Source of the DNA: Christensenellaceae bacterium
GTDB taxonomy: Bacteria; Bacillota; Clostridia; Christensenellales; Borkfalkiaceae
NCBI GenBank assembly: GCA_045651185.1
Contig: JAZRRZ010000021.1
Coordinates: 57,464-81,463, forward strand
DNA length: 24,000 nucleotides
Direction of reading: 5' to 3'
In this document: positions 5,071 to 19,441 of the stretch, piece by piece
Layout of the letters: every line of letters begins with the position of its first letter
Position numbering within the stretch: position 1 is the stretch's first letter
Program-made: the position numbers and the translations under genes
Notes under the pieces: model-generated
Database searches by the model: none
What the model saw: only the letters and a program-made list of their open reading frames with translations
Told to the model about the DNA's origin: nothing

Positions 5071-6828
5071 TCAACGTGTGTTGTCTTCGTCAGAATAGCA
5101 CAATTTCTCAAACTCGCCACTCTTAGAAGAAGACGATATCCCTTTAATTCCCGTTTTTTTATCAACTCTAACCTTTCTCGGACTTCTAAATTTTCGTCCA
5201 TTTAAGTCGTCCTTAAAACCAGTTTTATACACAAACGAGATTTTTTGAGGGTCCTTCGCACCGTTTTCGTCAAAACCACCAATAATAACCCTTTCTACAA
5301 TACTTTCAAAAACGGCTCTATCAAATTTAGTTAAGCCTTTATTCTCTAAAAGAACTTTTTTGAACTCAGCAATACGCTTTTCAATACTCTTTCTTGACGT
5401 ATCAGCTTGTTGTAGTTCTTCAAGCTGGAGTTTCAACTCTTCTATTTTAGCACATAATCCCAAGTTTTTCAACTCATATTCATCCTTTGTAATAGATTCA
5501 TCTAAACGCAAATCTAAAAGTTTATCTTTTCGCGCTAAAACGTCCCTGATTTCACGATTAACTTTTTCTATTTCTTTAACCACGCTATCGTCGGAAAGTT
5601 CGGCAGTAACCTTTGTCAAAAAGTCATTGAGAATTGATTCATTGTCTTGCATCAATCTTTGATAGGATTCAACGAATGCTCTTTCTATCAACTTTTCGTC
5701 TACGCCTTTGCTATCGGGACAAAACTTTCTTCCACCCTTTGTTGCTGTCACGCATTGCCATACTGATTTTTGATGAGGCGTTCCACTATGCCAACTCCTT
5801 CTTGAAAGAGTTTCACCGCAAAAACCACACTTTATCATACAACTGAACGAATATTTTCTTGTAAATGGCTCTCTCTTCGCTCCGTCAGGCGCAAGTCTTG
5901 GTCTTGAACGACGCTTTAATATTTCCTGCGCCATTTCCCAATCTTCTACTGAAATAATGGGTTCATGATGTTCAGACAAATAAAATTTATCCGACTCGCC
6001 CATATTTTCTAATCGCCTTTTGGATATTGGGTCAACTGTAAAGGTTTTTCCCATTAAAATATCACCTTTATACTTTTCGTTGGAAATAATTCCTGTAATA
6101 GTTGACTCTGGCCATGACAATAAACCGCGTTTGCTTTTATGCCCCATTTGGCGCAGTTCTTTAGCGATAATATGTCCACCAGCACCTTCAATATAACGTT
6201 TGAAAATGTATTTAACGATTTTCGCTTCTTCGTGGTTTATATGTATTGTTTTTGTTTCCTTGTCGTAATCATAACCCAAACAACCTTGAAACCCAATAAG
6301 TTCGCCACGTTGCATTTTCATCTTCAAACCTTTTTTAACGTTTGCAGAGATATTTTGCACTTCTTGCTGTGCCACCGAACTCAAAATTGTTAGCATCAAT
6401 TCGCCGTCCATTGTCAAAGTGTTTATATTTTCTTCTTCAAACTTAACGGCAATATTACGCTCTTTTAGCATTCTAACGTATTTTAAGGTATCCAAAGTAT
6501 TTCTTGCAAAACGAGAAATAGATTTAGTAATAATCATATCAATTTTGCCAGCAACACAATCTTGAATCATACGTTGAAAATCTTCACGCTTGTCAACTTG
6601 AGTTCCCGTGATAGCCTTATCTGCATAAATATCCACTAAATGCCAGTTAGGATTGCTTTTTACCATATCGGTATAGTAAAGCACTTGAGAACGATAACTA
6701 TCTAATTGCTCTTCATCATCAGTACTAACTCTACAATATGGCGCAACTCTTAATTTTTCACTAAGACCAACACCTTTGCTTCTATCAACAATTGTTGCTT
6801 TTGCTTTAATAACTTCTACTTGTTTCAT
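5071..6828 (-). CDS. Large serine recombinase (resolvase/invertase N-domain + recombinase domain + zinc ribbon + coiled coil)
   Basis: YCRVSTDDEEQLDSYRSQ (nucleophile Ser), ITKSISRFARN, Cys-rich CGFCGETL...WQC...FCP, coiled coil EELKLQLEELQQ. Start set at ATG 6828, which follows an AAAGGGGG SD; the track start at 6891 lies inside the promoter. Confidence 0.9.
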   Translation of the reverse strand: MKQVEVIKAKATIVDRSKGVGLSEKLRVAPYCRVSTDDEEQLDSYRSQVLYYTDMVKSNPNWHLVDIYADKAITGTQVDKREDFQRMIQDCVAGKIDMIITKSISRFARNTLDTLKYVRMLKERNIAVKFEEENINTLTMDGELMLTILSSVAQQEVQNISANVKKGLKMKMQRGELIGFQGCLGYDYDKETKTIHINHEEAKIVKYIFKRYIEGAGGHIIAKELRQMGHKSKRGLLSWPESTITGIISNEKYKGDILMGKTFTVDPISKRRLENMGESDKFYLSEHHEPIISVEDWEMAQEILKRRSRPRLAPDGAKREPFTRKYSFSCMIKCGFCGETLSRRSWHSGTPHQKSVWQCVTATKGGRKFCPDSKGVDEKLIERAFVESYQRLMQDNESILNDFLTKVTAELSDDSVVKEIEKVNREIRDVLARKDKLLDLRLDESITKDEYELKNLGLCAKIEELKLQLEELQQADTSRKSIEKRIAEFKKVLLENKGLTKFDRAVFESIVERVIIGGFDENGAKDPQKISFVYKTGFKDDLNGRKFRSPRKVRVDKKTGIKGISSSSKSGEFEKLCYSDEDNTR

Positions 6829-6862
6829 TATACCCCCTTTTCCGTATTCCTTATGTAGTGTT

Positions 6863-6891
6863 ATTATACAATAATATAAAAACATTGTCAA
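6863..6891 (-). promoter_or_regulatory. Consensus sigma-A promoter for the recombinase gene
   Basis: Minus strand TTGACA (6891-6886), a 17-nt spacer, then TATAAT (6868-6863). The -35 overlaps the TGA stop of the upstream small ORF. Confidence 0.7.
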
Positions 6892-7064
6892 TTCATAATA
6901 CTGGATATAATATGATATTCTTTCATTAATTTTCTCTTAACTTTGTCATACTCATTTTGCGAAATTAATTCTTTTTGCAAAAGTGTTGTAAGCATAGCAA
7001 GTTGCATACTATATTCCAACAACTTTTTATTGGACACAGTTGTCTTTTCTAATTTAACATCCAT
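6888..7064 (-). CDS. Small helical protein upstream of the recombinase (58 aa; SHOCT-like C-terminal motif; possible recombinase accessory factor)
   Basis: ATG at 7064 preceded by AAAGGAGGTG with 4-nt spacing (the track start at 7112 lacks an SD). Sequence MDVKLEKTT...LISQNEYDKVKRKLMKEY resembles the (L/I)IS/TxxEYexKKxxL short C-terminal motif. Function not established. Confidence 0.6.
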   Translation of the reverse strand: MDVKLEKTTVSNKKLLEYSMQLAMLTTLLQKELISQNEYDKVKRKLMKEYHIISSIMN

Positions 7065-7082
7065 TTTCACCTCCTTTGGACA

Positions 7083-7117
7083 TAAAAAATCCTTCTTGCT
7101 CGTCCTAAACAAGAAGG
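7083..7117 (-). terminator. Terminator-like hairpin in the leader of the small ORF
   Basis: Perfect 8-bp stem CCUUCUUG/CAAGAAGG (7117-7110 / 7098-7091), 11-nt loop, then AUUUUUUAU on the minus strand. Ends ~13 nt before the SD of the 6888-7064 ORF. Confidence 0.6.
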
Positions 7118-7145
7118 CGTTTCAAAATATTATTTAATTGTTTAA

Positions 7146-7182
7146 GTTAAAGAAAATGCCGCCTCGCTTTCGCTCGGCGGCA
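7146..7182 (-). terminator. GC-rich rho-independent terminator
   Basis: UGCCGCC/GGCGGCA 7-bp GC stem (7157-7163 / 7176-7182), extendable by GC after a 2-nt internal loop, followed on the minus strand by AUUUUCUUUAAC. Confidence 0.65.
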
Positions 7183-7385
7183 TAAATTGATACACAAAAA
7201 AAGCACCTAAATTTTTCTTAAACTTATAGCATTATAAAATTAAAGAAAGATAAAGACTGCCCCAAAATGCGCTTATATAATACTGATTTTATTGTTTCTC
7301 ACATTTCCCCATACCGACATCATTGCATCGTTTTACAGCCAAATTAAAGGTTTATAAAACTATTAGAATAACAGTCTTATTATTA

Positions 7386-7496
7386 CTAAATATTTATTAC
7401 CCATCGCCTCTCATCACTCGTTTTCTTGCCCATATAAAACATAAGTATGCTCTTAAGAATCTCTTCAAAAGTGTGTATATGCAAATCTTGTTTCAT
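7386..7496 (-). CDS. Hypothetical 36-codon ORF (MKQDLHIHTFEEILKSILMFYMGKKTSDERRWVINI)
   Basis: Below the ORF-track cutoff. ATG at 7496 lies directly after GAGGTGGC and downstream of a good promoter. No recognisable domain; may be a gene remnant or non-coding. Confidence 0.2.
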   Translation of the reverse strand: MKQDLHIHTFEEILKSILMFYMGKKTSDERRWVINI

Positions 7497-7525
7497 GCCA
7501 CCTCACATTCGTTCGGTGGCAACTC

Positions 7526-7554
7526 ATTATAGCCACTCACGCAATTTGCTGCAA
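7526..7554 (-). promoter_or_regulatory. Sigma-A-type promoter
   Basis: Minus strand TTGCAG (7554-7549), a 17-nt spacer, then TATAAT (7531-7526). Confidence 0.55.
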
Positions 7555-7650
7555 TGATGATTTTCGAATAGCTTTTACTCTCTTCGCCGATTTTTGAAGA
7601 AGTTGAAATCAAAATCATTAGGAAATATAAAGAGTTTTATCACTTCACAT

Positions 7651-7695
7651 GATACCCCAACTTTTTTTGCAAAAATTTCCAATTTTGGGGGTATC
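7651..7695. repeat. Nested inverted repeat
   Basis: Outer arms GATACCCC / GGGGTATC (perfect 8 bp, extendable through AT pairs around one extra G at 7686). Inner perfect 12-bp palindrome TTTTTGCAAAAA (7664-7675). TTGACA 5 nt downstream (7700-7705). Confidence 0.6.
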
Positions 7696-7869
7696 GATTT
7701 TGACAATTTTCCCCGTAAAATTTCCACTTTTTTCACCATTTTTATTTAGCAAAAAACGCCATCAAAATCTTCTTCCTAAAAGCCTATTAAATTTATTATT
7801 CTTTACCACTTCACTTCATTTTTTATCCTCCATTTCGTTAAATATATATTTCTTTTGAAAGTTTAATTT

Positions 7870-7906
7870 AAAAAATAAAAAAGCCCAGATTAAAATTTTC
7901 AGAGCT
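7870..7906 (-). terminator. Rho-independent terminator
   Basis: Minus-strand RNA AGCUCUGA-AAAUUUUAA-UCUGGGCU (8 positions: 7 pairs including one G-U, plus 1 mismatch) followed by UUUUUUAUUUUUU. Confidence 0.6.
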
Positions 7907-8014
7907 TTTATAGATTACCTTTCGGCTGTTCAGTTAAAAATTTTGTTCTATGTCCCGTGCACATATAAATATATAATATTCTACACAACTTCAGCTCCTT
8001 TTGCTTTTTTGCAA

Positions 8015-8058
8015 TAGAAAAACGCCTCCGAGATTTTTTCTCGAAAGCGTTCGTTTTT
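8015..8058. terminator. Bidirectional terminator hairpin
   Basis: AACGC...CGAGA-UUUUU-UCUCG...GCGUU (8021-8051) with a 3x3 internal loop. T5 follows on the plus strand (8054-8058) and UUUCUAUU follows on the minus strand. Confidence 0.55.
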
Positions 8059-8079
8059 GAATTGATTAAAATTTTTCAC
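8015..8079 (-). ncRNA. Candidate ~65-nt small RNA (promoter-to-terminator unit)
   Basis: Predicted start ~7 nt after the -10 at 8086-8091. Sequence GUGAAAAAUUUUAAUCAAUUCAAAAACGAACGCUUUCGAGAAAAAAUCUCGGAGGCGUUUUUCUA ends in the 8021-8051 hairpin plus U-run. No ORF. Confidence 0.3.
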
Positions 8080-8085
8080 AATACT

Positions 8086-8115
8086 ATTATAACATAGGTC
8101 ATACTCTCATTGCAA
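8086..8115 (-). promoter_or_regulatory. Extended -10 sigma-A promoter
   Basis: Minus strand TTGCAA (8115-8110), an 18-nt spacer, then TGTTATAAT (8094-8086). One TGAGAGTA repeat unit lies in the spacer. Confidence 0.6.
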
Positions 8116-8186
8116 TAACATTTTACTTTCATTTTTCTCCCAAATTACTATCAATTTACTTTCTTTTTACTCTCACAATACTCTCA
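8102..8186. repeat. Phased short direct repeats (iteron/operator-like array)
   Basis: Plus-strand heptamer TACT(C/T/A)TC starts at 8102, 8124, 8146, 8157, 8168 and 8179, with a weak copy at 8135. All spacings are multiples of 11 bp. Minus-strand reading is GA(G/A/T)AGTA, three copies extended to TGAGAGTA. Confidence 0.65.
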
Positions 8187-8363
8187 CGCCAAAATCCCTA
8201 GTGTTCATCAATCATTTTTTGACCTGAAAAATATAAAAAATTTCACAAATCCACATAAAACCATGCTAAAATTTAGTAAAAAACAGAAAAATTATAAGTT
8301 TAAACAAAAAACAACGGCCAAACGTCCATGTTTTGGAACATATGACCGCTTTTGTAAAAGTTC

Positions 8364-9506
8364 TTACAAATAAGAATATAAATCATTCTTTAACTCACTA
8401 AGTGACGAATATCTTGCGTCTAAATTAGATGACATGCATCTTTCAATTACAGGATAAATATTGTCAGTTATTTTTGGAGCTTGTCTTCCATATAGGATAA
8501 AAGTTATAATATACGCAATTGCATAAAGTTCATTTTTAAACCCATAATCTTTGAATGACTCCAAAAAAGGATCTCTAAATGTCCCTTTATTTGTACTATC
8601 CGAAGACGTCATTTCTTTTGATGTGTCTTTTACTAGTCCAAAGTCGGAAATTTTAATAAAAGGATTACCATAAAAATCTAGTTTGATTAAAATATTTTTA
8701 TAACTTAAATCTCTATGGAACAATCCTATTTTATGAATATATTCTATTCCGCTAAAAAACTGAGCTAGAAGAGACTTCCTTGTTTCTAATGTCAGTTTAG
8801 TGTTATTAGCAGATATGTATTCAAATAATGTATGGTCGCAATATTCCATATTATATGAAAGTTCCTTGTCAAAAAAGCTATAAACTCTTAACAAGTGAGG
8901 GTGTTGACATTTTTTCATTATGTCGTATTCTTGTTTAAATCTTTCAACTTCTTTATCTATAGCCCCTTTTTTTAATTTTTTATATGCAAATTTCTCATTA
9001 TAGTCTTCATCTTTGTATTTATATACATTTGCATAACTTCCACCACCTACAGGGCTAAGTTCGAATGATTTTTTGTTTTTCTTGCGAATTTTACCATCTT
9101 CTAATAAGAAGAATATAGGGTCGTATTCTTTGATAATAAATTTGGGCAAATTCGATGGCAAATCAGAGCCAAAAGAACTTTTTAAATAAGGTTCGGCAGC
9201 TTTTAAGACTTCTTCATAATTTTTATCGATATAAAAGTCATATTCTGTTCCATTAACCATTTCCTTAAAGCTTTTTAAACTTTGAATCACACGTAAATAG
9301 TCACGGCTATCCCCCGCATTAAATCTAGAACCGATTCGGTTATTGAAATCTTTAGCATAAAAATTAATAACACTATGTATATAGGCAAAAAACAAGCCTA
9401 CATCTTTATTTTTTCTAGATACTTCTTCATATATAATAATGTATTTTTCTTCATATTCTTCCGCAAAATCATTTACAAATAAATATACTTTCTTATTTAA
9501 ATCCAT
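8364..9506 (-). CDS. Ser/Thr protein kinase (Hanks-type) with unknown ~155-aa N-terminal domain
   Basis: Gly-loop GGGSYANVY, VAIK-like FAYKKL, catalytic loop FHRDLSYKNILI, DFG SDFGLVK. SD GAGG 5 nt before the ATG. Only 15 nt after the RES gene stop. Confidence 0.85.
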   Translation of the reverse strand: MDLNKKVYLFVNDFAEEYEEKYIIIYEEVSRKNKDVGLFFAYIHSVINFYAKDFNNRIGSRFNAGDSRDYLRVIQSLKSFKEMVNGTEYDFYIDKNYEEVLKAAEPYLKSSFGSDLPSNLPKFIIKEYDPIFFLLEDGKIRKKNKKSFELSPVGGGSYANVYKYKDEDYNEKFAYKKLKKGAIDKEVERFKQEYDIMKKCQHPHLLRVYSFFDKELSYNMEYCDHTLFEYISANNTKLTLETRKSLLAQFFSGIEYIHKIGLFHRDLSYKNILIKLDFYGNPFIKISDFGLVKDTSKEMTSSDSTNKGTFRDPFLESFKDYGFKNELYAIAYIITFILYGRQAPKITDNIYPVIERCMSSNLDARYSSLSELKNDLYSYL

Positions 9507-9521
9507 TTATACCTCTTAAAA

Positions 9522-10268
9522 TTATAATAAATCTAAACGTGTAATAGGGTTTGATGCAATTGATATTCTTTCTACCTTATGTAATCGAGAATTAATAGCA
9601 ACACAATCATTAGGATGAAAAAACACTAAATTATCCCCCTCAGGATGCAGTGAACTTTTAAAAACAATCCCATCAAACCCCATATTAATAAATTGTCCAG
9701 CGAGATATTGTGTGAACCAATAATTATGCCCTATATAATGTGGTTTTGAAAATTCGTTAGCAATTCGAGTTAATAGAGGATATAAAACATCATCATTATC
9801 ATAGTTCTTGGGACGTTTTCTTCTCAAATCAGCAAAACGTAAATCCTTATTAGAAACAAATTCCGCGATAGATATTGTTTCATTTTTTATAGGTCTTAAT
9901 TCATAAATTACAGTATTTGCATCACTAGAGGTATATAAAAATGATACACCTTTACAGTTAAGTCGACCTTCTACTGCTAATTCGTTAGGTGGAGCTCCTG
10001 ATTTATCTTTGTCATATCCCTGAAAAATAGTTGCTCTTGATTCGAGAAAATCATTTAATTCCTCTTCTGTTGATGCTACATCATTTAAATTAAAAATCCT
10101 CCCTCTAAAAAAAGATTTTCCCTTGGTAATCCAACAAGAAAACATTTCTTGATTATTCTCCAAAATTTTTAACAATGGATGACGCGTATCGAATCTATTA
10201 AAATTACTAACAAGTTTTTTCCATTCATAGAAGTCATGTCGAACCTCTTGTCTTAATTGCCTATTCAT
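9522..10268 (-). CDS. RES domain-containing protein (NAD+-targeting toxin family)
   Basis: RES-domain landmarks in order: FFRGRIF (Arg), EGRLNCKGVSFLYTSSDANTVIYELRP (GRxN...YxS...E), DGIVFKSSLHPEGDNLVFFHP (Ser, then hGxNhhhF). SD AAGGAG upstream. Confidence 0.8.
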   Translation of the reverse strand: MNRQLRQEVRHDFYEWKKLVSNFNRFDTRHPLLKILENNQEMFSCWITKGKSFFRGRIFNLNDVASTEEELNDFLESRATIFQGYDKDKSGAPPNELAVEGRLNCKGVSFLYTSSDANTVIYELRPIKNETISIAEFVSNKDLRFADLRRKRPKNYDNDDVLYPLLTRIANEFSKPHYIGHNYWFTQYLAGQFINMGFDGIVFKSSLHPEGDNLVFFHPNDCVAINSRLHKVERISIASNPITRLDLL

Positions 10269-10309
10269 ATTTCTCCTTTGTTATTTTACTACTTCATCGA
10301 CAAAATCGA

Positions 10310-11008
10310 TTATTCCTCTACTTGTGAATACGCTACACCTTCGTCGATTTTGTACATAAGCATACTTGCAAACATTAGTCGCCTAAACGCTTCATCTTTA
10401 TCCAAGCCTATATTTTCGTGTGACTTAGGATTTCTTAATGCTGACATTGAGCCTGCAAACATTTGCATATAACCCATTTGTGTATTTTGGCCCGTATCAT
10501 TTGTTCTATCGCAGAATTCAATAATCGGCTCATTTGCAGAAAACAAACAAGTCATAACAGAAACGCCGTCAGGAATTTTTTCGCCTGGTCTAACCTTCTT
10601 AAAAATCTTCTTTACTCGGCTATTGATTTCAATAAAAGCATCACACGCAGCATTTGCATAATGTCCATTTATATAGAGTTCTTTAGACGATTTTATTACC
10701 ATCGGATGAATAAGCGCCCAAATATTTTCTTGTGGATTATCGCATTTATTATTAAGATAATTGACAATAGCTAAAAGTTCCCCTAAGACTATAATATTTA
10801 GCTTCGCACCTATAAAAAGAATATCTTTTAAGCGGAACAAATCTTTACTAAAATATGGTTCAACTCTTGCAATGCTTTCAGATAATTTTATAATTCCATT
10901 TTTAATTTCATTAATACCTTGCAAATGAAACACTCGTTGCCCCAAATCGGGTTTGATAGACATTGAGTTTGCCCACTCGTGTAAATCTTTAACTAGTTGT
11001 ATATCCAT
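10310..11008 (-). CDS. TIGR02391 / Hypoth_Ymh family protein with ~95-aa N-terminal extension
   Basis: C-terminal LIHPMVIKSSKELYINGHYANAACDAFIEINSRVKK...MGYMQMFAGSMSALRNPKSHENIGLDKDEAFRRLMFASMLMYKIDE matches the family hallmarks as I recall them (HPxI, GHYxxAxxxA, RNPxxH, helical tail). Confidence 0.75.
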   Translation of the reverse strand: MDIQLVKDLHEWANSMSIKPDLGQRVFHLQGINEIKNGIIKLSESIARVEPYFSKDLFRLKDILFIGAKLNIIVLGELLAIVNYLNNKCDNPQENIWALIHPMVIKSSKELYINGHYANAACDAFIEINSRVKKIFKKVRPGEKIPDGVSVMTCLFSANEPIIEFCDRTNDTGQNTQMGYMQMFAGSMSALRNPKSHENIGLDKDEAFRRLMFASMLMYKIDEGVAYSQVEE

Positions 11009-11052
11009 ACTTTACTCCATAATCTTAATAATTGATACAAGAAAGCGAACTA

Positions 11053-12378
11053 CTAAACAGTTCTAAGTGCATTAAAATATAGTTTATATTTGCCATAAAA
11101 ATCTGTTAACTTCTGATAAAACTCAACGTCATCACTTACTAAAGCCGTATGATTAAATTTGTATCCAAATACTAAGGAAACAACACAAGCTACAATCCCA
11201 TCGCCTTCCAATGAAATGTTTTGATTTATATGTTTCTTAAAATATTCTTTTAGTTTTTCTCCAATATCTGTTTTTGGCAGGTTTCCATTTTCAGGCGAAA
11301 TATTAAAAGTATTACCTTCTTTTTCTGCTATAATCCAAAATGTTTGTATAATAATTTCAGCAAGTATACATTCATAGGGCAATTCAACAGTATCTATACC
11401 AACTAAATCGTGACAAAGAATAGCCCTATCAACAATATTTTCAAACTCTCTTGGAAGTAACGAAGCAATTATCTCATTAACTAATAGCTTCGCCTGCGTT
11501 TCCTTAGTGTTTTTACTAAATTTACTTGCAAAAACTGTTAATTTCTTATAGGCTTCTTCTTCATCTAAATTACCTTCATCCAAAATAATCTTGAAATCAA
11601 TGAACTTCCTTAAATATTGAGATGATGCTTTTTCCCCATAAAGTTTATCTATACTTCTACTTAATTGTTCTTTATGTATAGCGAGAATTGTTACAGAATT
11701 AGGTACGTTATCAAAAATATGATGCAACCTTTCTAATGTCTTAATTGCAAAATTAGGAATACAACGGTCTAATTCGTCAACAATAAAAATTATTGGTGTG
11801 ACCTTAGACAATTCACCTAATATTGAAATTACATTTTTTATATCGTTTTCAATATCATTATTCGGATTTTTCGTTTTAAGGCTTATTTTACTTTTTTCTC
11901 TTAATCTTTTTATCTCTTTAGCAGTATTCTTTGTAAAATCGACAAGATCAAAATGAAGCAATTTTTTGGTAACCGCCGATAAAACTATTTCCAATTGAAC
12001 CAACACCTTTTTACCCAAATCTGAAGCTATAGTTTTTAATACATTGTTAACGCATAGTTGATTATTTAGTTCATTTACAATTGTAGATAAAATAGCTAAA
12101 AGAGGTTCTTCATAATAATCTTTTTCCCATGCATTATAATGAATAATAAAATATTCACTTGAAAAATTTTTGCATTCTTCGTTTGTATAATCTTTAGATA
12201 TATCAAGATTTTTAAGTTTTGCTTCTATTTTATTTATTAACCACGTTTTCCCTTGTCCCCATTTCCCTTCAATAGCAAATGTTGTAGGTTTAGACTTTTT
12301 TGCACAATCCTTTACGATTGAAACCACATTATTTACATAATCTTCTCTACCTAATATATCACCATATATAAAACCCAT
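11053..12378 (-). CDS. KAP family P-loop NTPase (no transmembrane insert seen)
   Basis: Walker A EGKWGQGKTWL (the GxWGxGKT/S form typical of KAP), Walker B IIFIVDELDRC (hhhhDxLDRC); 441 aa. Confidence 0.8.
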   Translation of the reverse strand: MGFIYGDILGREDYVNNVVSIVKDCAKKSKPTTFAIEGKWGQGKTWLINKIEAKLKNLDISKDYTNEECKNFSSEYFIIHYNAWEKDYYEEPLLAILSTIVNELNNQLCVNNVLKTIASDLGKKVLVQLEIVLSAVTKKLLHFDLVDFTKNTAKEIKRLREKSKISLKTKNPNNDIENDIKNVISILGELSKVTPIIFIVDELDRCIPNFAIKTLERLHHIFDNVPNSVTILAIHKEQLSRSIDKLYGEKASSQYLRKFIDFKIILDEGNLDEEEAYKKLTVFASKFSKNTKETQAKLLVNEIIASLLPREFENIVDRAILCHDLVGIDTVELPYECILAEIIIQTFWIIAEKEGNTFNISPENGNLPKTDIGEKLKEYFKKHINQNISLEGDGIVACVVSLVFGYKFNHTALVSDDVEFYQKLTDFYGKYKLYFNALRTV

Positions 12379-12422
12379 ATTTTACTCCACATGTTTATAT
12401 AAAATTCATGAAATTTTAAACC

Positions 12423-13130
12423 TCATTTTTTTGTGCAATTTAGTAAGACAATATCTTCTCCTTTTTTAATCCCTGTCTTTCCTGTGTAAAAATCCACTTC
12501 AAGCAACATTAAATCTTTTTCAACTTGATAGCCTTCTTTCATTTCAAAGAAAATGGTTATATTTGTGGTTTCACCATTTGTAAGAACTGTACCTACCCAA
12601 GAAAAATCCTTAACAGCATTTTTGTTGTCAAAATCAGCAAAACTTTTAACAAAACCATTTTCGTCAGTATCGATATGCACGTCAACAGCATTGATATCAA
12701 ACAAGCTCATAATATCATTTAATGGTAAATATACTCCGCTATGATTTCTTAACTTAAAATCGTTTGTATCTAATTTATGGTCTTTTTCATTACTATCAAT
12801 CCTTTTGGTTATATCAAGATTTACTTCAATATAGTTGCCTGACAATGTGGTTTTTTCTATTGAGTCCTTCTCTTTTTGATAAGAAATTGAATCAACTGTT
12901 TTAGCGTAATAAACTTTTATGTCAAAATTATCGTGAACTTCGACAACCTCATTCATAAAATATTTTGCTTCAACTGTTTCTATGGAATTATTAGATTTAC
13001 AACTTCTAACACCAAATATTACTCCCACAAGTGTGCTTATGGCTGCTATAGCAATAATCACATAAATGCCCCATTGTATTGGTTTTTTGAAATTTTCGTA
13101 TTTCTCTAAAAAATTAAAAAATTTTGACAT
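12423..13130 (-). CDS. Single-pass membrane protein with extracytoplasmic beta-rich domain (DUF4352-like)
   Basis: N-terminal TM WGIYVIIAIAAISTLVGVIFGV followed by ~190 aa with a ...YIEVNLDITKR...NDFKLRNHSGVYLPL...ITIFFEM... pattern reminiscent of DUF4352 Ig-like domains. Assignment is tentative. Confidence 0.55.
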   Translation of the reverse strand: MSKFFNFLEKYENFKKPIQWGIYVIIAIAAISTLVGVIFGVRSCKSNNSIETVEAKYFMNEVVEVHDNFDIKVYYAKTVDSISYQKEKDSIEKTTLSGNYIEVNLDITKRIDSNEKDHKLDTNDFKLRNHSGVYLPLNDIMSLFDINAVDVHIDTDENGFVKSFADFDNKNAVKDFSWVGTVLTNGETTNITIFFEMKEGYQVEKDLMLLEVDFYTGKTGIKKGEDIVLLNCTKK

Positions 13131-13168
13131 TTTTACTCCATAGGTTTAATAATTTTGTATTTTTCCCC

Positions 13169-15379
13169 TTAAAACACAGATTCAATCGGTCGCCAAGCAT
13201 CGTCAGCCATATCTATGGAAAACTCTGTGTTATTGATATACAAACAATTGTCATTATCTCGCACGAAACCCCATTGAACACCTCGCTGTTCGGCGTAGTC
13301 CTTGAATGCATTAAATTTATTTTCAATCTGGTCGTCTATATTCTTATTCTTGCCTTTGCTTTCTCCACCTTTTGTTTCAATAATCCAAATAGTACCGTCT
13401 TTCTTTTTTACGATATAATCGGCATAGAACAACCATTGATGACGGAGTCCGTCAATATAAACGATAGAAAAATACTGCTGACCAGAATCACCATTTTTAT
13501 AAACCCATTCAATATCATCACGTTTTTCGCAATGCTGTTCAAAAAGCATTTCTGAAGTGCTCCGTACAACACTTGTAGCAAAACCCGAAGTATAATCGTG
13601 ATAAGCGTTTGAAAGATAATCAACCTCATTTTTTACGTTCGGATCGTATTTGAAAAAGTCTTGTTCGGGAATATGAAACATGCTAGTCTTGGGCTTTAAA
13701 ACAAAGCTCATTTGCTCTGCCATACCCGTGGTAACAGCGCGGAAATCTTGCTTCAACTTATGCTCGTTGTTGATAACGAAAGCGTAAAACTCTCTCGTTT
13801 CAAGAGCAACAAGATTTTTGGACATATTACCGCCCTTACGGAAAAGGCGTTCCAAAATCGTCTTGACCTTTGCCGTCTGCATACTAATGGCAGTTTTAAT
13901 TGCATCAACACTATGAAGCAAGTAGATACCGTGTTTATGTGTATCTACCGCCTTTTTTGTAGACAGATAGTTATCACTCGTTGCAATGGATGCGGTGCGA
14001 ACAAACATTCCCTCAAGAACTTGTCCACGAATATTCGTACCAAATACGTAGCCTGCATCGGCAAGCAACATTTGATTTTGCTTTTTATCGCTACCAAGCT
14101 TATATTTTGCAACAAGACTATCGTAGAGCTTATTCAAAACCTCGCGCTCGCCAAGACCTCCAAAATCAAGATCACGCATTTGTTTTTCAAGAGTAAAGGT
14201 CTTGCACTTATCCTTCAAGAAAAGACGGCGAGTTTCGTAGGCTTTATCAACGCTGGCAAGCAAACCGGCTTTGTACTTTTCATCGAAAGTATATACATAG
14301 CAAAAATCAAGCAAGTCATCGTCATAATGCTTTGCTTCTGGCATTCTACGAATACGACCAATGGTCTGTATTTCAAAGCTCTCACTCATACCTTCACGGA
14401 GCTTGACAAGAATTTTTGCCCTGGGGCAATCCCAACCCGTACTAATTGCTTGCTTCATCAAAAGGAAAACTGGGGTGGCATCGTTGTCGGTAAGATTTTC
14501 GGGCAAATCCTTTTTATCCTCACTCATCCACTTGGACACCATACCGTTGTCGTATGTATAGCCCATAGACTCCAACTTTTTCTCAACAGCAATTATTGTT
14601 TCGGGCTGTGCGTTCGGAAATTGAATTAAAACAAGGGGACGGATATTTTTACCAATGGCGGTATAATGGCTTGCAATATTCTTGCGTTTTTCATCAGCAA
14701 GATCAAGCAGACAATCGTAATCGTCGCCAACCTCCATACCTTCGGTAATGCCTTCGTTTACATAAAGAGCTTTTGTAATTAGTCCTGCGTTTATGACATC
14801 TACCTCGTCGATTTCAAAATACTCAAAGCGTTTATTCTCAATAGCGGTAGCACTTACACGAATAATGTTCTTTGCGGAAAAGGCATCAATAATGGTTTTC
14901 GCCTTTGCGGTGTTGTTAGAATGCTCCTCGTCTATGATAACAATAAATTCGGTATTATTACGATGAGCTTCGGCAATGCGATCAAACAAATTCTTTTTCT
15001 CGCCGTCACGCAACGAAGTATTATCCTTTTTTGTTACCAATTCCCAGTTAATGAACGTGGTGCTTTCCGCAGGAAAACCGCCTTGCAAAGCATCAAAAAG
15101 ACTTTGCGTATGACGGTGCGGTGCAAATTTACGCATCTTTTTACGGCTTTGCTCCTCAAGGTCGCCCTTGCCCGGGCAGAGCCAAATGAAAGCAGCATTG
15201 CTGTTAATTTTAGTTAGATATTCCTCGACAAAATCAATAAGAATAATCGTTTTACCCGATCCTGTAGGGGATTTTACGGTAATCGTTTGCTTGCTATTGC
15301 TGTCGGCAACAAGGTCTATCAGCTTGAGTACAGCTTTTTCTTGAAAATCAAATAAATTGATTGCAATTCCTCCTACCAT
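13169..15379 (-). CDS. res: Type III restriction enzyme Res subunit (SF2 helicase + PD-(D/E)xK nuclease)
   Basis: Helicase motifs SPTGSGKT (I), IIDEEH (II), VSATA (III), QTIGRIRR (VI). C-terminal ADYIV...IWIIETKGGE nuclease motif. ATG overlaps the mod stop (ATGGTAG) with AAGGAGGTG upstream. Confidence 0.85.
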   Translation of the reverse strand: MVGGIAINLFDFQEKAVLKLIDLVADSNSKQTITVKSPTGSGKTIILIDFVEEYLTKINSNAAFIWLCPGKGDLEEQSRKKMRKFAPHRHTQSLFDALQGGFPAESTTFINWELVTKKDNTSLRDGEKKNLFDRIAEAHRNNTEFIVIIDEEHSNNTAKAKTIIDAFSAKNIIRVSATAIENKRFEYFEIDEVDVINAGLITKALYVNEGITEGMEVGDDYDCLLDLADEKRKNIASHYTAIGKNIRPLVLIQFPNAQPETIIAVEKKLESMGYTYDNGMVSKWMSEDKKDLPENLTDNDATPVFLLMKQAISTGWDCPRAKILVKLREGMSESFEIQTIGRIRRMPEAKHYDDDLLDFCYVYTFDEKYKAGLLASVDKAYETRRLFLKDKCKTFTLEKQMRDLDFGGLGEREVLNKLYDSLVAKYKLGSDKKQNQMLLADAGYVFGTNIRGQVLEGMFVRTASIATSDNYLSTKKAVDTHKHGIYLLHSVDAIKTAISMQTAKVKTILERLFRKGGNMSKNLVALETREFYAFVINNEHKLKQDFRAVTTGMAEQMSFVLKPKTSMFHIPEQDFFKYDPNVKNEVDYLSNAYHDYTSGFATSVVRSTSEMLFEQHCEKRDDIEWVYKNGDSGQQYFSIVYIDGLRHQWLFYADYIVKKKDGTIWIIETKGGESKGKNKNIDDQIENKFNAFKDYAEQRGVQWGFVRDNDNCLYINNTEFSIDMADDAWRPIESVF

Positions 15380-17181
15380 GATTCGCCCACCTCCTTGAGT
15401 TCAAAGTTAAAGTAATAGTCAGGGATAATATAAATATCCGTATTAGCAAACAAGTCGCATTGCTCAGTTGTAAAAAGAACGTTTTTAGAAACGTATAAAG
15501 CTTTAAGATCGGGATAATTCGCCCAATTTACTTGAAGCTCGTCCGCTTCTTCATCACTCATAACCATAATGTAATTGCTGCCGTCAATCTTAACGCCATG
15601 CTCGAGCTGAATCATTTCCGTCATGTGTTCCAAGAGAGCATCAGATAGATATTCCTCATCCCGTGATACAAAGTCGGTTTTATAATACTTAAGGTTGAAC
15701 GGCAACGCATGATATTTCCCATAGCCTTCTGCGACATTTTTTAATCTTGGATATGTTTTTGTATCACAAATATCGTTCTCGTTATTTGTACATAAGATAA
15801 ATCTGCGCGTTCCGCCATCTTCTGCATTCAAAGCAACAACAGCATGTCCTGTGGTTGCACTCCCTGCAAAGAAATCCAATACAGTTATATCGTCTTGGGG
15901 ATATAGGCTTATAATTTGCTTGAGTAAATCTACGGGCTTTTTACCATTTGAAAATTCAACTGCGCCTTCTTTAGTGAGATTTTTTGTCGCACCAGTCATA
16001 TCCCAATATGTGCCTTGCAAATCTTTTTTATATAATTCACCGTTTATAATTTCAGCTGTATCTCTCAACCAAACAAAAAGATTGCACACATCATCTTTGT
16101 AGAATTGTTCGTATATTACACCTTTATTCTTTCCTGTTTTTGGGGTATATTCAATGGATAGAACTTCATCATGAATACCTTTTTCTTGGCGGTATTCAAT
16201 AATTCTTGTTCTGATAGAAGATTGTGAGTTAGTAGTTCTAAAAGCATTTATTCCATATTTTTGATATGCTTCTTTGACCGTAATTCCATCTCTCTTGGCA
16301 ATTTGATTTATAGACATTGTAACAACATTTTTTCGCCTATAAACTTTGATTTCGTTACCATCTCCATCAACAGTAGATCCAATATATTCTTTTTCGCCTG
16401 GATTAAGCAAAACAGTAGTATATTTCCAACTTTTCCCCTCATCAATATACCTTTGAATTAAATCGGAGATTTCGGTATAAACATACGGCCCATTAAATAA
16501 CGGCATAAAGTCATAAGACTTAGCGTAAACAAGAATGTATTCGCAGTTTTTCTTAAAACGTTTATCTTCACCACCGCCGGAAGCACCTGCAATATTTTTC
16601 ATATTAACACTTATGATATTTAAGAAATTGCTCTCACCAAAAATATCATCGCAAAGGCATTTAAGCTGCGCCACCTCAATATCACTAATTTGAATAAAGA
16701 TAACACCTTTTTCAGAAAGAAGCTCTTTTGCGATTAGCAAACGCTTTTCCATAAAGGAAAGCCATTTAGAGTGACGGAAAGAATCCTCTTCAGCTACATA
16801 GTTATCATCGTAAACAAAATCTTCGTGCCCCGTGTTGTATGGGGGATCGATATAGATTAAGTCGATAGCACCCTTGTGCGTTTTCTCCAAGAGATAAAGA
16901 CTATGCAGATTATCGCCTTCAAGCAAAAAGTTATAGCGATTATCGGGGACGAGAGATATTTCTCTTTCAGGCACTTCCGTGAATACGGGAATGTTTGTTT
17001 GCATAGCAATATCGACCTTTTCCTCGTGCTGTTCCCATACAAGCCCATATTTCTTTGAGATGAGTGCATTTGCAATCTCACCGAGAGCGACGAGCATCTC
17101 ATCATCGGTTTTATGTTCTTCTTTGATTTTATCTAAAAACGCAAGCATGCGCTGACGCTTTAACTGTGAAAGGTTGGGCAT
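15373..17181 (-). CDS. mod: Type III R-M Mod subunit (beta-class N6-adenine/N4-cytosine DNA methyltransferase)
   Basis: Motif IV IYIDPPYNTG precedes motif I VLDFFAGSATTGHAV (beta-class order) with a long variable region between them. 7-nt overlap with res. Confidence 0.88.
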   Translation of the reverse strand: MPNLSQLKRQRMLAFLDKIKEEHKTDDEMLVALGEIANALISKKYGLVWEQHEEKVDIAMQTNIPVFTEVPEREISLVPDNRYNFLLEGDNLHSLYLLEKTHKGAIDLIYIDPPYNTGHEDFVYDDNYVAEEDSFRHSKWLSFMEKRLLIAKELLSEKGVIFIQISDIEVAQLKCLCDDIFGESNFLNIISVNMKNIAGASGGGEDKRFKKNCEYILVYAKSYDFMPLFNGPYVYTEISDLIQRYIDEGKSWKYTTVLLNPGEKEYIGSTVDGDGNEIKVYRRKNVVTMSINQIAKRDGITVKEAYQKYGINAFRTTNSQSSIRTRIIEYRQEKGIHDEVLSIEYTPKTGKNKGVIYEQFYKDDVCNLFVWLRDTAEIINGELYKKDLQGTYWDMTGATKNLTKEGAVEFSNGKKPVDLLKQIISLYPQDDITVLDFFAGSATTGHAVVALNAEDGGTRRFILCTNNENDICDTKTYPRLKNVAEGYGKYHALPFNLKYYKTDFVSRDEEYLSDALLEHMTEMIQLEHGVKIDGSNYIMVMSDEEADELQVNWANYPDLKALYVSKNVLFTTEQCDLFANTDIYIIPDYYFNFELKEVGESW

Positions 17182-17212
17182 GTCATTTCTCCTTCTTGTT
17201 AATTAAATATTC

Positions 17213-17998
17213 TTAGTGTAGTTTCTTATGGGATATCCATTTTGCTTTATTTGGTGTTATTACTAATATGTCAATCGGCCCACCAACAGTTTTATTTACA
17301 TTTGTAAAGCGCATAGTATCTATTGTTGTGTTGATAGCATATCTTACAAAATCTATTGCATCTTGTAAAGTCATTAAAGTCCACAAAATAACATTTTCTC
17401 CGAGAAATATGGTTTGATTTTTAGGTAAGACAAGAGAATCTCCAACATTTACTGGTCCATTAGTTGAATTTAAGGTTAAATTTGAAACCTCTATAGGACT
17501 TTGACACATATAATGAGTTTTAACAATACGAGTTATAGTATCAATTTCTCCATCCCATTTTGCCCCAGTTCCATTAGCGGATATTTGATTGCAAATGTTT
17601 TGTGGCCCTGTGATAACTTGATAAACACTTTGTGTCTTTTGACCATTTATCAAATCATATCCCGCAACAATAAAATGAACTTCTGCGTTAGGGTCTATAC
17701 TTATAATATGGTTTTTTAAATTATTTGCAGTATCATAAGTGGATGTACTTGCAGTTACTTGATTGTCAATGTAATCATATATGTATCCTGTTATATTTTT
17801 ATTTTGTAATGATGCTGCTCCACAAGTTGAAATACCACAATTATTCGGGCAAAGAAATGTTTTTTCTTGTGTATCGAAATAATGTCCCGTTTGTATATTT
17901 ACAGGAATATTAGGAGCAATTTGAGATGAAAAACTAATTCTACTATCACTACCCATTACAATCCCTTCTGTTGTCCATACTGTTACAATTAATGACAT
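17213..17998 (-). CDS. Proteasome beta / HslV-like Ntn hydrolase, orphan (no ATPase partner)
   Basis: N-terminus MSLIVTVWTTEGIVMGSDSR aligns with HslV [20 protein letters not shown] (nucleophile at residue 2, Asp 16 residues later). ANGTGAKW corresponds to the GSGS loop. C-terminal VGGPIDILVITPNKAKWI matches the proteasome-type GGxhxhhhI strand. SD GGAGA 7 nt upstream. Confidence 0.65.
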   Translation of the reverse strand: MSLIVTVWTTEGIVMGSDSRISFSSQIAPNIPVNIQTGHYFDTQEKTFLCPNNCGISTCGAASLQNKNITGYIYDYIDNQVTASTSTYDTANNLKNHIISIDPNAEVHFIVAGYDLINGQKTQSVYQVITGPQNICNQISANGTGAKWDGEIDTITRIVKTHYMCQSPIEVSNLTLNSTNGPVNVGDSLVLPKNQTIFLGENVILWTLMTLQDAIDFVRYAINTTIDTMRFTNVNKTVGGPIDILVITPNKAKWISHKKLH

Positions 17999-18030
17999 AT
18001 AAATTTCTCCTAAGTTTAATTTACTACACT

Positions 18031-18055
18031 AAATATGACATTTAATGTCATATTT
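18031..18055. promoter_or_regulatory. Perfect 11-3-11 palindrome (candidate operator)
   Basis: AAATATGACAT-TTA-ATGTCATATTT lies between the Fic stop (18065) and the Ntn hydrolase start (17998). No U-run follows on either strand. Confidence 0.5.
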
Positions 18056-18064
18056 ATAAAATTT

Positions 18065-18943
18065 TTAGTCGTTTATTTCTTCGTAATAGTAAGAGTAGTC
18101 AACGCCTTTCATGAAGACTTCCCTATCGTTAATCTTGTCCGTCAATGCGTTTGATAAAAGTTCTTTAATCATCGTGCTATCAACTATGCTTTTACGCATT
18201 GCTTCTAAATAATCTTTTTTATCAATTTTAGACCAGTCAACGCATTTGCCTAAATTTTTCTTAAATATCAAGTCAAGCCAAATTCTTGTACTTCTTCCGT
18301 TCCCTTCCATGAAAGGATGTGCTATATTCATTTCAACGTATTTTGCAACAATTTCTTCAAAAGTGTTTTCTGGCATTTTCTCAATACTCTTAAGATTATC
18401 ATCTAAATACATGGCAGGGGCAAAAGCAAAACCACCTTTTGCAATATTTATCGTTCTTATTTGACCGGCAAAGTTATACAGTCCACCAAACAAATAGGAA
18501 TGGATTTGTTGTAAGCCCTTAACAGTCCCCACTTCTATTGAGTCAAGCAACGAGCTATCAAACAGCGAATATGCTTTTTGCTTACTCTTTCCGTCAACGC
18601 TTTCTTCACTTCTTGTAAGCCACGCTATAAACTCTGAACTGATTTTACTTGGAAATTCTGCAAGTAAAGTCATAACACCATCCGAATCAATCGCATCGGA
18701 CTTATATTTCTTACCATCGTTAGCGGTGATTTTCAGTTGGGTAGTGGCGCTAACCAACTGGCTATTTTCTTTCTTTAATTTTGCTTTAAGATACTTCCAG
18801 TAGTTTCTTGACTTTTCATAAGATGGTTCTTTCCTTATTGCCGAAATAATATCTAAAACGCTAAAATACCAAGTATTTTTATCGTCCACCCAAACGGCTC
18901 TTACTGGCGTATCATTAAAAAATCTAATTGAAATTTTTGACAT
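18065..18943 (-). CDS. Bro-N domain / Fic (COG2184-type) fusion protein
   Basis: C-terminal Fic motif [14 protein letters not shown] preceded by [28 protein letters not shown], as in class I FicT/VbhT-type toxins. The N-terminal 110 aa ([29 protein letters not shown]...EFIAWL) resemble Bro-N. Confidence 0.82.
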
Positions 18944-19000
18944 TAAATTTTACCTCGTTAAACGCTACGTTTATCAAATATGTTAGACATAATCAGCAGG

Positions 19001-19192
19001 CTAATCGTCAATTTTAATATTATTCTTTACACAAAATTCGTGAATCGCCTTTTGCCCTTCGTAGTTAGGTTCGTTTAATCCCCTTTCCCAACGATTAATA
19101 GTAGCAAACGAAACACCTATTTCCTTTGCAAACTTTTCTTGACTTAAAAACATCTTTAGTCTTATTGCTTTGATTTTTTCGCCAAAAGTCAT
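19001..19192 (-). CDS. XRE-family helix-turn-helix transcriptional regulator (63 aa)
   Basis: IKAIRLKMFLSQEKFAKEIGVSFATINRWERGLNEP is a classic HTH_3 pattern. Start placed at ATG 19192 (MTFGEK) downstream of the promoter and a GAGGTG SD; the track start at 19243 lies inside the promoter. Confidence 0.85.
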   Translation of the reverse strand: MTFGEKIKAIRLKMFLSQEKFAKEIGVSFATINRWERGLNEPNYEGQKAIHEFCVKNNIKIDD

Positions 19193-19223
19193 ACTACACC
19201 TCAAAATAAAAATGTATAACAAT

Positions 19224-19252
19224 ATTATAACATAATTATTCACTTTTTACAA
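19224..19252 (-). promoter_or_regulatory. Sigma-A promoter of the XRE gene
   Basis: Minus strand TTGTAA (19252-19247), a 17-nt spacer, then TATAAT (19229-19224). Confidence 0.6.
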
Positions 19253-19341
19253 GAGTCTCACAACAACGATTAAAAATATTTTTTACTGATTTTTAATTAT
19301 TTTCTATAATAATCCAAGAAAAATCACTCAAAAATGCTGAT

Positions 19342-19364
19342 TTTACCCCATTTTCAGGGGTAAA
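19342..19364. repeat. Inverted repeat near the right island edge
   Basis: TTTACCCC-attttca-GGGGTAAA (8-bp perfect arms) followed 2 nt later by TTGACA (19367-19372). Confidence 0.6.
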
Positions 19365-19390
19365 GGTTGACAAAACAAAAGGAATATGTG

Positions 19391-19441
19391 TTTTAAAAAA
19401 ATAAAAAATCCTAACGAGGAATACGGTTTTCGTTAGGATTT
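19391..19441 (-). terminator. Strong rho-independent terminator downstream of the rlmD-like gene
   Basis: AAAUCCUAACG / CGUUAGGAUUU stem of 11 bp (extendable), followed on the minus strand by UUUUUUAUUUUUUU. Confidence 0.75.

Follow-up and report, generated by a model that had tools for sequence, protein, structure and literature searches.

Five genes behind a Type III restriction-modification pair in a Christensenellaceae mobile island: probably a co-transcribed stack of autonomous defence cassettes

Introduction

Does a tightly packed string of genes in a defence island encode one multi-component system, or several independent ones that share a transcript? This question is raised by a 24,000-nucleotide (nt) stretch of contig JAZRRZ010000021.1 of a Christensenellaceae bacterium (assembly GCA_045651185.1), here called the window, in which five genes follow mod and res, a Type III restriction-modification (R-M) pair. 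In order, they encode a membrane protein (TM235), a KAP-family NTPase (KAP441), a TIGR02391 protein (Ymh232), a RES-domain protein (RES248), and a protein kinase (Kin380). An initial annotation, made from the letters alone, had suggested that the five may be one operon and one system, with the kinase N-domain or the membrane protein as sensor, the NTPase and the kinase as switch, and RES as effector. The follow-up described here was computational; genes were read from the 24-kb window, all coordinates are window positions unless another locus is named, and the compared loci carry our own labels (L026 and the like).

The string is probably the co-transcribed tail of a defence operon in a ~14.5-kb island bounded by a serine recombinase, and consists of autonomous cassettes, each holding a single gene or two at the most, that stand behind the Type III R-M pair. 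That the five genes are a stack of autonomous defence cassettes rather than a five-component system also seems likely to us. The evidence that carries this reading comes from the distribution of the genes in other loci and from short sequence remnants in the spacers between them, while the anatomy of the string bears on its transcription.

Gene organization and transcription

The anatomy described in the initial annotation was borne out on re-measurement. All five genes lie on the minus strand with spacers of 44, 44, 41, and 15 nt, and a Shine-Dalgarno (SD) sequence (GGAG, AGGAG, or GAGG) is found upstream of each of the five start codons. The four gaps, together with the 38-nt gap between res and TM235, fold no better than shuffled sequence (z = -0.3 to +0.7), and a consensus scan of 8364-13169 found no minus-strand terminator. 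What the annotation had missed is an intrinsic-terminator-like hairpin with a U-run directly after the kinase gene (Table 1), the stability of which (dG -20 kcal/mol, z -3.3) was equaled by none of 200 shuffles. The hairpin is kept in the sister island L026, there 3' of a SIR2 gene and as a perfect 15-bp stem with a U-run, and it is probably both the end of the transcription unit and the right edge of a variable slot.

Consensus promoters were absent from the gaps of the string, and the whole scan returned 46 promoter-like sites, against 55 expected in shuffles. The shared orientation of the genes is without weight, because every large open reading frame (ORF) of the 24-kb window lies on the minus strand. 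One operon is nevertheless plausible, being compatible with the short, structure-free, and promoter-less gaps and with the single conserved terminator at the end. Since the gap from res to TM235 is only 38 nt, the unit probably includes mod and res; most likely, as judged from the sequence, mod, res, and the five genes would form one long transcript, with mod as its probable head, that ends at the conserved hairpin.

The initial annotation had also held that the string differs in composition from the adjacent R-M genes. This difference stands, but the string is not a separate block, and its GC content at third codon positions (GC3) is host-like. The five genes have a GC content of 28-34% and a GC3 of 18-28%, and the flanking housekeeping genes (dnaX, sigma factor, SpoU, and tRNA synthetase) have 29-36% and 17-29%, respectively, whereas the values are 40.3% and 40% for res and 37.1% and 34% for mod; the GC3 of the Fic gene of the island is 34%. 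As the GC3 of the string equals that of the flanking housekeeping genes, it is the Type III mod/res pair that is the compositional outlier and immigrant, while the five genes match the composition of the host.

Distribution of the five genes in other loci

The presence or absence of the five genes was tabulated for 59 fetched loci. In 59 of 59, at most two of the five genes occur, and the only pairs seen are TM235 with KAP441, Ymh232 with RES248, and RES248 with Kin380, each with at least one gene that is at least 88% identical to that of the window. Conserved co-occurrence or order of the genes across divergent lineages was not found in these loci; a shared adaptor or effector-associated domain that would link the components was not found either when the N-terminal domains of Ymh, RES, and the kinase were compared. 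The 18 loci with RES relatives at 47-63% identity, from genomes and metagenomes, have no relative of KAP441, Ymh232, TM235, or the kinase nearby. The clearest case is the sister island L026, which matches the window at 96% nt identity from within mod through res, TM235, and KAP441 to window 11003. It then replaces window 8366-11002, that is, exactly the Ymh, RES, and kinase genes, with a 97-aa gene and a 986-aa ThsA-like SIR2 gene; from 8365, within the stop codon of the kinase gene, the two islands are homologous again, and the terminator is kept.

The initial annotation had proposed a search for the conservation of the five-gene order, and had named independent assortment of the genes as evidence against a single system; independent assortment is what the comparison gave. 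Of its joint proposal, the one operon is thus compatible with the anatomy, but the one multi-component system is contradicted by loci that hold no more than two of the genes, by an island that lacks three of them, and by neighbors that are unrelated. Tight, terminator-free packing on one strand of a defence island is therefore not evidence of a multi-component system, a point that matters for island mining, and the five genes can be assigned to autonomous modules that are clonable and testable singly.

Junction fossils in the spacers

All families in the string are of known kinds; the one unusual point is the spacers, which hold what we call junction fossils, short remnants of the end of another gene. 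Three copies of the 9-mer TGGAGTAAA are present in the window, where they form the SD regions of TM235, KAP441, and Ymh232, and the 9-mer recurs upstream of cassette genes in unrelated loci. Two types of tail-helix fossil were found, ATGATTAAACCTATGGAGTAA-like and GTCGAAGAAGCTGTAAAATAA-like. The source of class A is seen in L028 and L001, where ResIII+Eco57I genes end in ...EIAFIE(K/S)MIKPME* and the next gene starts 4-5 nt on, with ATG in the case of KAP (L028) and with an ATT-adjacent TTG in the case of RES (L001). The source of class B is the ...EIALVEEAVK* end of MmeI/Eco57I-type genes, which is the true gene end upstream of RES in L010 and L019.

The spacer between res and TM235 carries a class A fossil that agrees at 22 of 23 nt with the junction between the Eco57I gene and KAP in L028, a match reached by 0 of 100 shuffles. 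The spacer between KAP441 and Ymh232, which is the left breakpoint of the L026 swap, carries a second one and forms a 23-nt direct repeat (87%) with 13132-13154. When the 33-nt gene end of L028 (7965-7997) is taken as the reference, these two spacers are the best minus-strand matches in the window, with 25/33 and 24/33, respectively, over a background of 20-22. A third copy in L028 lies directly after KAP (9335-9367; 27/33, next best 20/33), so that the KAP cassette of L028 is flanked by direct repeats. Similarly, the RES cassette of L001 is flanked by a 37-nt repeat of 78% identity (7921-7957 and 9187-9223). Class B is represented by the spacer between Ymh232 and RES248, which agrees at 25 of 28 nt with the gene end of L010/L019 (0 in 100 shuffles). 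In L041, it forms a 45-nt direct repeat of 84% identity (624-668 and 2345-2389), one copy upstream of each RES gene; it is also recognizable in L025 and partly in L012.

The remaining junctions are plainer. The TM-to-KAP spacer was rejected as a full fossil, as its 19/32 is background and the similarity is confined to ~19-21 nt around the SD; the 15-nt gap between RES248 and Kin380 holds no fossil. Two ORFs were considered as long Eco57I C-terminal remnants and rejected: only the last ~19 residues of the 114-aa ORF of L006 match an Eco57I protein, and the 121-aa ORF of L001 has no significant match at the protein level, its fossil being visible only as the 37-nt nucleotide repeat. Integron-like attC spacers were likewise rejected, because the spacers do not fold and the sole recombinase is the large serine recombinase, with no IntI.

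The regular spacing of 44, 44, and 41 nt arises because the spacers hold the fossils of Type IIG gene ends. The fossils show that TM/KAP, Ymh, and RES each formerly had a Type IIG gene immediately upstream, of which each brought along a piece of its own; the separate fossils indicate, therefore, that the cassettes were brought in separately, by piecemeal accretion. Since res of the window is not Type IIG, either the array was transplanted or its Type IIG head was replaced by mod/res. For the movement of the cassettes, Campbell-type insertion of a circle at a short repeat and displacement as in orphan toxin arrays are both possibilities.

More tentatively, and with a confidence well below that placed in the stack itself, these junctions may represent a previously undescribed way of assembling defence operons. 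Whole promoter-less defence genes, among them those for KAP, Ymh, RES, and Schlafen-like proteins, would be at home immediately 3' of Type IIG genes and would be swapped or stacked at the short conserved tail-helix sequence that holds the ribosome-binding site (...EIAFIExMIKPME* or ...EIALVEEAVK*), leaving direct-repeat fossils of 25-55 nt, while the R-M head would be replaceable, here by the Type III mod/res. If true, the arrays would correspond, at the level of whole genes, to the orphan toxin arrays of contact-dependent inhibition (CDI) and Rhs systems. The likeness to CDI/Rhs orphan toxin/immunity arrays and to integron arrays lies in tandem, co-oriented, promoter-less cassettes, each with a short remnant of the upstream anchor gene's 3' end ahead of it, and in direct repeats that flank cassettes in L028, L001, L041, and the window. 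Unlike CDI/Rhs tips, however, the cassettes of the window are whole genes and not C-terminal toxin tips, with fossils of only ~25-55 nt; unlike integrons, the window has neither attC-like palindromes nor an integron integrase. Should the pattern turn out to be general, the accretion of defence genes behind R-M genes could be followed at the level of sequence, and the tail-helix fossil would be a simple search key for new cassettes.

The encoded proteins

Profile searches upheld the initial domain calls for the KAP, TIGR02391, RES, kinase, and membrane proteins, and each of the four enzymes (KAP, Ymh, RES, and kinase) retains its catalytic motifs. TM235 has one transmembrane (TM) helix, located at its N-terminus. 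It matches no family in Pfam, PADLOC, or NCBIfam, and its ectodomain alone has no Pfam match at E<=10. The best PDB matches of its AlphaFold2 (AF2) model are YjhA (3cfu), CD630_09570 (5bxg), and MPT63, which is a hint, at a low model confidence (pLDDT, the predicted local distance difference test score, of 64), that TM235 may be a signal-anchored extracytoplasmic beta-sandwich of the YjhA/MPT63 type.

KAP441 matches Pfam KAP_NTPase (2.7e-31) and PADLOC PDC-S20 (1.6e-78), the latter as a full-length match with residues 7-387 aligned to positions 4-380 of the 458 of the profile; both the Walker A (GKWGQGKT) and Walker B (IFIVDELD) motifs are intact. It contains no transmembrane helices and ends in a C-terminal region of ~140 aa. 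It is thus predicted to be a soluble KAP-family P-loop NTPase and a candidate for single-gene defence. Single-gene KAP NTPases near serine recombinases have been reported to give phage protection that depends on Walker B (Andersen et al. 2025, PMC12632615), and KAP441 shares with PDC-S20 and with these proteins the intact Walker motifs, the serine-recombinase island, and solitary relatives. However, EF_KAP has two N-terminal TM helices and an effector region of 322 aa, neither of which corresponds to KAP441. Membership of the Qat system was rejected, since the NCBIfam QatA match reaches 58 bits against a cutoff of 600 and no QatB/C/D-like neighbors are present; with respect to both QatA and PifA, the matches of KAP441 are far below the family thresholds.

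Ymh232 matches Pfam Hypoth_Ymh (4.2e-24) and TIGR02391 (1.5e-14; 54 bits against a cutoff of 39). Its Rx4H motif, R192-NPKS-H197, is that of HEPN proteins and is invariant in the alignment of the Ymh family, and Ymh232 is therefore predicted to be a HEPN RNase with a family-specific N-terminal domain of ~100 aa. Ymh has been listed as a HEPN family that includes "solos" in R-M operons (PMC3710099); a literature search returned no paper on TIGR02391 and none on PDC-S20. Relatives at 50% identity are morons of prophages (L035-37), and others at 50% stand beside an Mrr gene and a 492-aa protein with a sub-threshold nucleoside-deoxyribosyltransferase-like match. Two database proteins are fusions, namely P0187, in which HsdM is joined to a complete Ymh232-like protein, and P0190, in which HsdS is joined to the Ymh HEPN domain; as both come from short contigs, they could be genuine, or read-through or assembly artefacts.

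RES248 matches Pfam RES (6.7e-13) and belongs to a family of 66 proteins of ~248 aa in which R, E, and S residues are invariant. The best PDB matches of its AF2 model (pLDDT 85) are the NAD+ phosphorylase MbcT (6fkg_B) and the RES protein of Pseudomonas putida (6gw6/9r35), followed by PARPs, and the predicted fold is like that of the ADP-ribosyltransferases (ARTs). RES248 is expected to be an NAD+-consuming effector that degrades NAD+. The RES domain, the invariant R/E/S residues, and the ART-like fold are shared with the RES-Xre systems (MbcT-MbcA and P. putida RES-Xre). In contrast to these, no Xre/DUF2384 or helix-turn-helix (HTH) antitoxin gene was found as a neighbor, up- or downstream, in ~25 loci; RES248 has an additional helical N-terminus of ~90 aa, and its place behind R-M genes is characteristic. 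Control in cis could come from this N-terminal region, which may correspond to the 'HEPN/RES-NTD1' of PMC3710099. This antitoxin-less family of 66 members, usually directly behind restriction genes, is a standout candidate. No protein identical to RES248 or KAP441 was matched among the indexed contigs, and a scan of viral contigs found no relatives of the kinase or of RES.

Kin380 matches Pfam Pkinase (2.3e-34), its G-loop, HRDLSYKN, and DFG motifs are intact, and it is predicted to be a small Ser/Thr kinase of the Stk2/PD-T4-6 kind. In PADLOC, it matches mad6 (2.5e-38), Stk2 (5.4e-31), and PD-T4-6, at values from 1e-26 to 1e-38, and it shares with Stk2, PD-T4-6, and Mad6 of MADS a Hanks-type kinase domain, the single gene, and the occurrence on mobile elements. 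However, over its full length Kin380 is built neither like Stk2 (about 500 aa) nor like PD-T4-6, as it has only 380 aa and an unrelated N-terminal domain of 150 aa without a Pfam family; the PADLOC matches span only residues ~144-377, that is, the kinase domain. Full-length relatives, at 32-37% identity including the N-domain, are isolated genes on plasmids and in one phage: on 62 Campylobacter pTet-type plasmids, on plasmids of Lactococcus, Sarcina, Paenibacillus, and Geobacillus, and in the Bacillus phage PHBA67-T. This compact kinase family, spread over mobile elements of Clostridia, Campylobacter, Lactococcus, and Bacillus, is the other standout candidate.

No Pfam match at E<=10 was obtained for the N-terminal domains of Kin380, Ymh232, and RES248. 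An N-terminal adaptor shared by the three was rejected, as the hhalign probability between the N-domains is below 2%.

Proposed mode of action

If the string is a stack of cassettes, read-through from the R-M genes or from an island promoter would express all cassettes together. The cell would then deploy restriction first and, subsequently, several independent back-ups of the abortive-infection type, namely RNA cleavage by Ymh, depletion of NAD+ by RES, protein phosphorylation by the kinase, and an NTPase-driven action of KAP, each of which would presumably be triggered by its own N- or C-terminal sensor region. TM235, as a putative membrane-anchored beta-sandwich, would be a further cassette.

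Several points weigh against this reading. Weak internal promoters may exist in DNA of 30% GC, for or against which the promoter scan does not speak, and we infer the co-transcription from the anatomy, and the defence role of the five proteins from their families and their place in an island. Relatives of the kinase, Ymh, and TM proteins were sampled more thinly than those of RES and KAP, because a concatenated query of TM, Ymh, and the kinase N-domain gave only four matches. In addition, the PADLOC kinase models also match housekeeping kinases (PMC11514479), and the three adjacent pairs that recur in close relatives may include a functional pair.

Alternative explanations

Two or three modules of two genes would account for these recurrent pairs: TM235 with KAP441, Ymh232 with RES248 as a HEPN/RES toxin or a toxin-antitoxin-like pair, and RES248 with Kin380, in which the kinase would control an NADase. 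TM235 is kept beside KAP in L026, at 98% identity, the KAP relative in the sister island (L026/L027) being 88% identical, and in the window the two genes are bracketed by the two best class A fossils, with a junction between them that is at background level. Nevertheless, the 80% KAP relative of L028, which starts 4 nt after a 1341-aa ResIII+Eco57I Type IIG gene, has a fossil directly upstream, no membrane gene beside it, and convergent genes downstream. Likewise, an unrelated 286-aa gene lies directly upstream of the 60% relative, and the 45% relative occurs singly, in small elements consisting of a serine recombinase, Fic, and KAP (L045-50). No TM235 gene stands beside any of these three relatives, and a 39% homolog of TM235 occurs without a nearby KAP. 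KAP of the PDC-S20 type is thus found as a stand-alone gene, by itself in L045-50 and behind a Type IIG gene in L028-30.

For the other two pairs, the picture is similar. Ymh and RES recur together in L041 (MazG-like, RES323, Ymh, RES, and HATPase_c_3, with RES at 96% identity), where a second RES gene ends 2 nt upstream of Ymh, and RES and the kinase recur in L040 (RES at 95%), where they are followed by an unrelated membrane gene, a downstream flank that differs from that of the window; moreover, RES toxins usually require a neutralizing partner. However, every recurrence comes from a close relative in which one gene of the pair or both are at least 88% identical to those of the window, and may be a single inherited junction. 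RES occurs at 92-96% identity without Ymh (L025, with the order GmrSD, RES, and HATPase_c_3, and RES at 92%) and without the kinase (L025 and L041), neither partner was found in the 18 RES loci that are more distant, and Ymh at 43-51% and the kinase at 32-37% identity occur without RES nearby. Modules of two genes throughout therefore have, in our estimate, a small chance of being the right description.

L041 was also compared with the window in its own right. Its second RES protein has 323 aa and 35% identity to RES248 (671-2349 for this gene and Ymh), and Ymh thus has a RES gene on either side, possibly a hint of a link between HEPN and RES. Between L041 1734-3142 and window 10919-9517, Ymh is 63% identical overall, and its last ~45 residues as well as RES (96%) are nearly identical. 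The jump in identity at these last ~45 residues, which remains high into RES, indicates a recombination breakpoint inside the Ymh gene.

The frequent company of R-M genes raises the alternative that the genes of the tail are guards of the R-M system in the manner of PrrC and EcoprrI, held latent by the restriction complex or sensing its inhibition. In most loci, an R-M or DNA-modification gene precedes RES at a distance of 10-40 nt. Among RES relatives at 47-96% identity, there are ~15 different upstream neighbors, mostly R-M genes. These neighbors (including those in L019 and L025) comprise ResIII (four times), Eco57I (three times), Type_ISP_C (twice), MmeI/N6_Mtase, a D12 methyltransferase, HsdS, Mrr, GmrSD, an MTES_1575 restriction endonuclease, and DndB, and, in a few others, PARG, an S8 peptidase, and Fic. 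Downstream, no family recurs except for HATPase_c_3, a paraMORC-like ATPase, which was found twice; in L019-24, RES (87%) stands between an MmeI-type methylase gene and genes of 283 and 210 aa. KAP was found behind a Type IIG gene, the 43% Ymh relative of L057 lies 4 nt past hsdS within a Type I R-M operon, and a coupling of HEPN proteins with R-M systems has been proposed (PMC3710099). However, the partner systems, which are R-M systems of Types I, IIG, III, and IV as well as Dnd-like ones, are mechanistically unrelated, which argues against a specific physical interaction. Furthermore, the same families occur without nearby R-M genes (L045-50, L035-37, the plasmid kinases, L007, and L013), and hitch-hiking on R-M transcription together with the history of the cassette junctions explains the association equally well. 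The window shares with R-M-linked second-line effectors (PrrC-EcoprrI; Anantharaman et al. 2013, PMC3710099) an R-M operon with co-oriented toxin-type genes in a mobile island, but it lacks the ABC-ATPase/HEPN fusion of PrrC/RloC, and it stacks several unrelated effectors behind one Type III R-M with no evidence of physical coupling to it. We regard guards as unlikely.

A function other than phage defence, in which the genes would be addiction or stabilization modules or would serve competition between elements and so maintain the island, is improbable. In its favor, RES and HEPN belong to the classic toxin domains, the serine recombinase marks the island as mobile, and kinase relatives are carried by conjugative plasmids; however, no antitoxin partners are detectable, the neighbors and replacements are typical defence genes (R-M, SIR2/ThsA-like, AbiH, Cas9, GmrSD, AIPR, and Schlafen), and related single-gene KAPs protect against phage.

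Finally, one interdependent five-protein system in one operon, with the roles proposed in the initial annotation, is highly improbable: it would fit the tight, same-strand packing that ends in the one terminator and a domain repertoire like that of the NTPase-plus-effector conflict systems of the literature, but the other loci hold at most two of the genes and a 96% identical island lacks three, each family occurs alone or with unrelated neighbors, no adaptor is common to Ymh, RES, and the kinase, and the separate junction fossils indicate separate origins.

The mobile island and its Type III R-M genes

The cassettes that we regard as an accreted stack lie within an island (Table 1) with the gene order HTH_3, BroN-Fic (PDC-S04), a 261-aa gene of no assigned family, mod, res, the five genes, and the terminator, followed by ~1.2 kb without ORFs, a SHOCT gene, and the large serine recombinase, which is 98% identical in L026.

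Table 1. Coordinates of the features discussed, given as positions in the window
Feature	Position	Strand	Description
Mobile island	~5071-19600		~14.5 kb; between rlmD-like methyltransferase and CwlD-like amidase genes
Large serine recombinase	5071-6891	-	Pfam Resolvase, Recombinase, Zn_ribbon_recom; island end
Intrinsic-terminator-like hairpin and U-run	~8349-8306	-	Starts ~15 nt past kinase stop
Kin380	8364-9506	-	ORF, fifth and last of string
RES248	9522-10268	-	ORF, fourth of string
Ymh-to-RES fossil	10274-10301	-	Class B; reads ...VDEVVK*; plus SD of RES248
Ymh232	10310-11008	-	ORF, third of string
KAP-to-Ymh fossil	11012-11044	-	Class A; reads ...SIIKIME*
KAP441	11053-12378	-	ORF, second of string
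TM235	12423-13130	-	ORF, first of string
Res-to-TM fossil	13133-13165	-	Class A; reads ...KIIKPME*; includes SD of TM235
res	13169-15379	-	Type III restriction subunit, 736 aa; Pfam ResIII 1.4e-15; PADLOC REase_III 3.8e-15
mod	15373-17181	-	Type III methyltransferase, 602 aa; Pfam N6_N4_Mtase 1.4e-34; PADLOC MTase_III 4.3e-126
261-aa ORF	17213-17998	-	Between Fic gene and mod
BroN-Fic gene	18065-18943		PDC-S04 6.7e-153

Both subunits of the Type III R-M match their profiles, their genes overlap by 7 nt, and res falls within a 90% cluster of 302 members. The pair occurs as an exact two-gene cassette in L042. There, window 17197-13169 is matched at 88.7% nt identity, the aa identity is 93% for mod and 96% for res, and the nt homology extends from 16 nt upstream of the mod ATG to the res stop codon. 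The tail in L042 consists of a 223-aa gene and a 785-aa SEC-C gene, and three different tails thus follow res in the window, L026, and L042.

The Mod proteins of the window (602 aa) and of L026 (548 aa) align only over residues 1-221 (71%) and 405-602 (66%) of the former. The 96% nt homology with L026 begins at window 15645, and comparison of window 15645-16520 (Mod residues ~222-404) with L026 3359-5005 gives the impression that the central target-recognition region of mod has been swapped between the two. The slot between the Fic gene and mod is also variable, being occupied by a DUF6680 gene in L026, by an unrelated 255-aa gene in L042, and in the window by the 261-aa ORF, which has no family and a weak proteasome-like match at its N-terminus (E 0.025).

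Beyond the terminator, the ~1.2 kb at 7140-8300 contains no ORF of more than 70 aa and has a second strong terminator-like hairpin of 14 pairs (8052-8020); scans of the window against Rfam and for tRNAs gave no match. The equivalent place in L026 holds DUF6100 and 388-aa genes. At the other end of the island, the BroN-Fic gene has a 61% relative that lies directly upstream of the 45% KAP relative in the small serine-recombinase elements (L045-L050), and Fic and KAP together may be an older backbone that received the R-M and the other cassettes.

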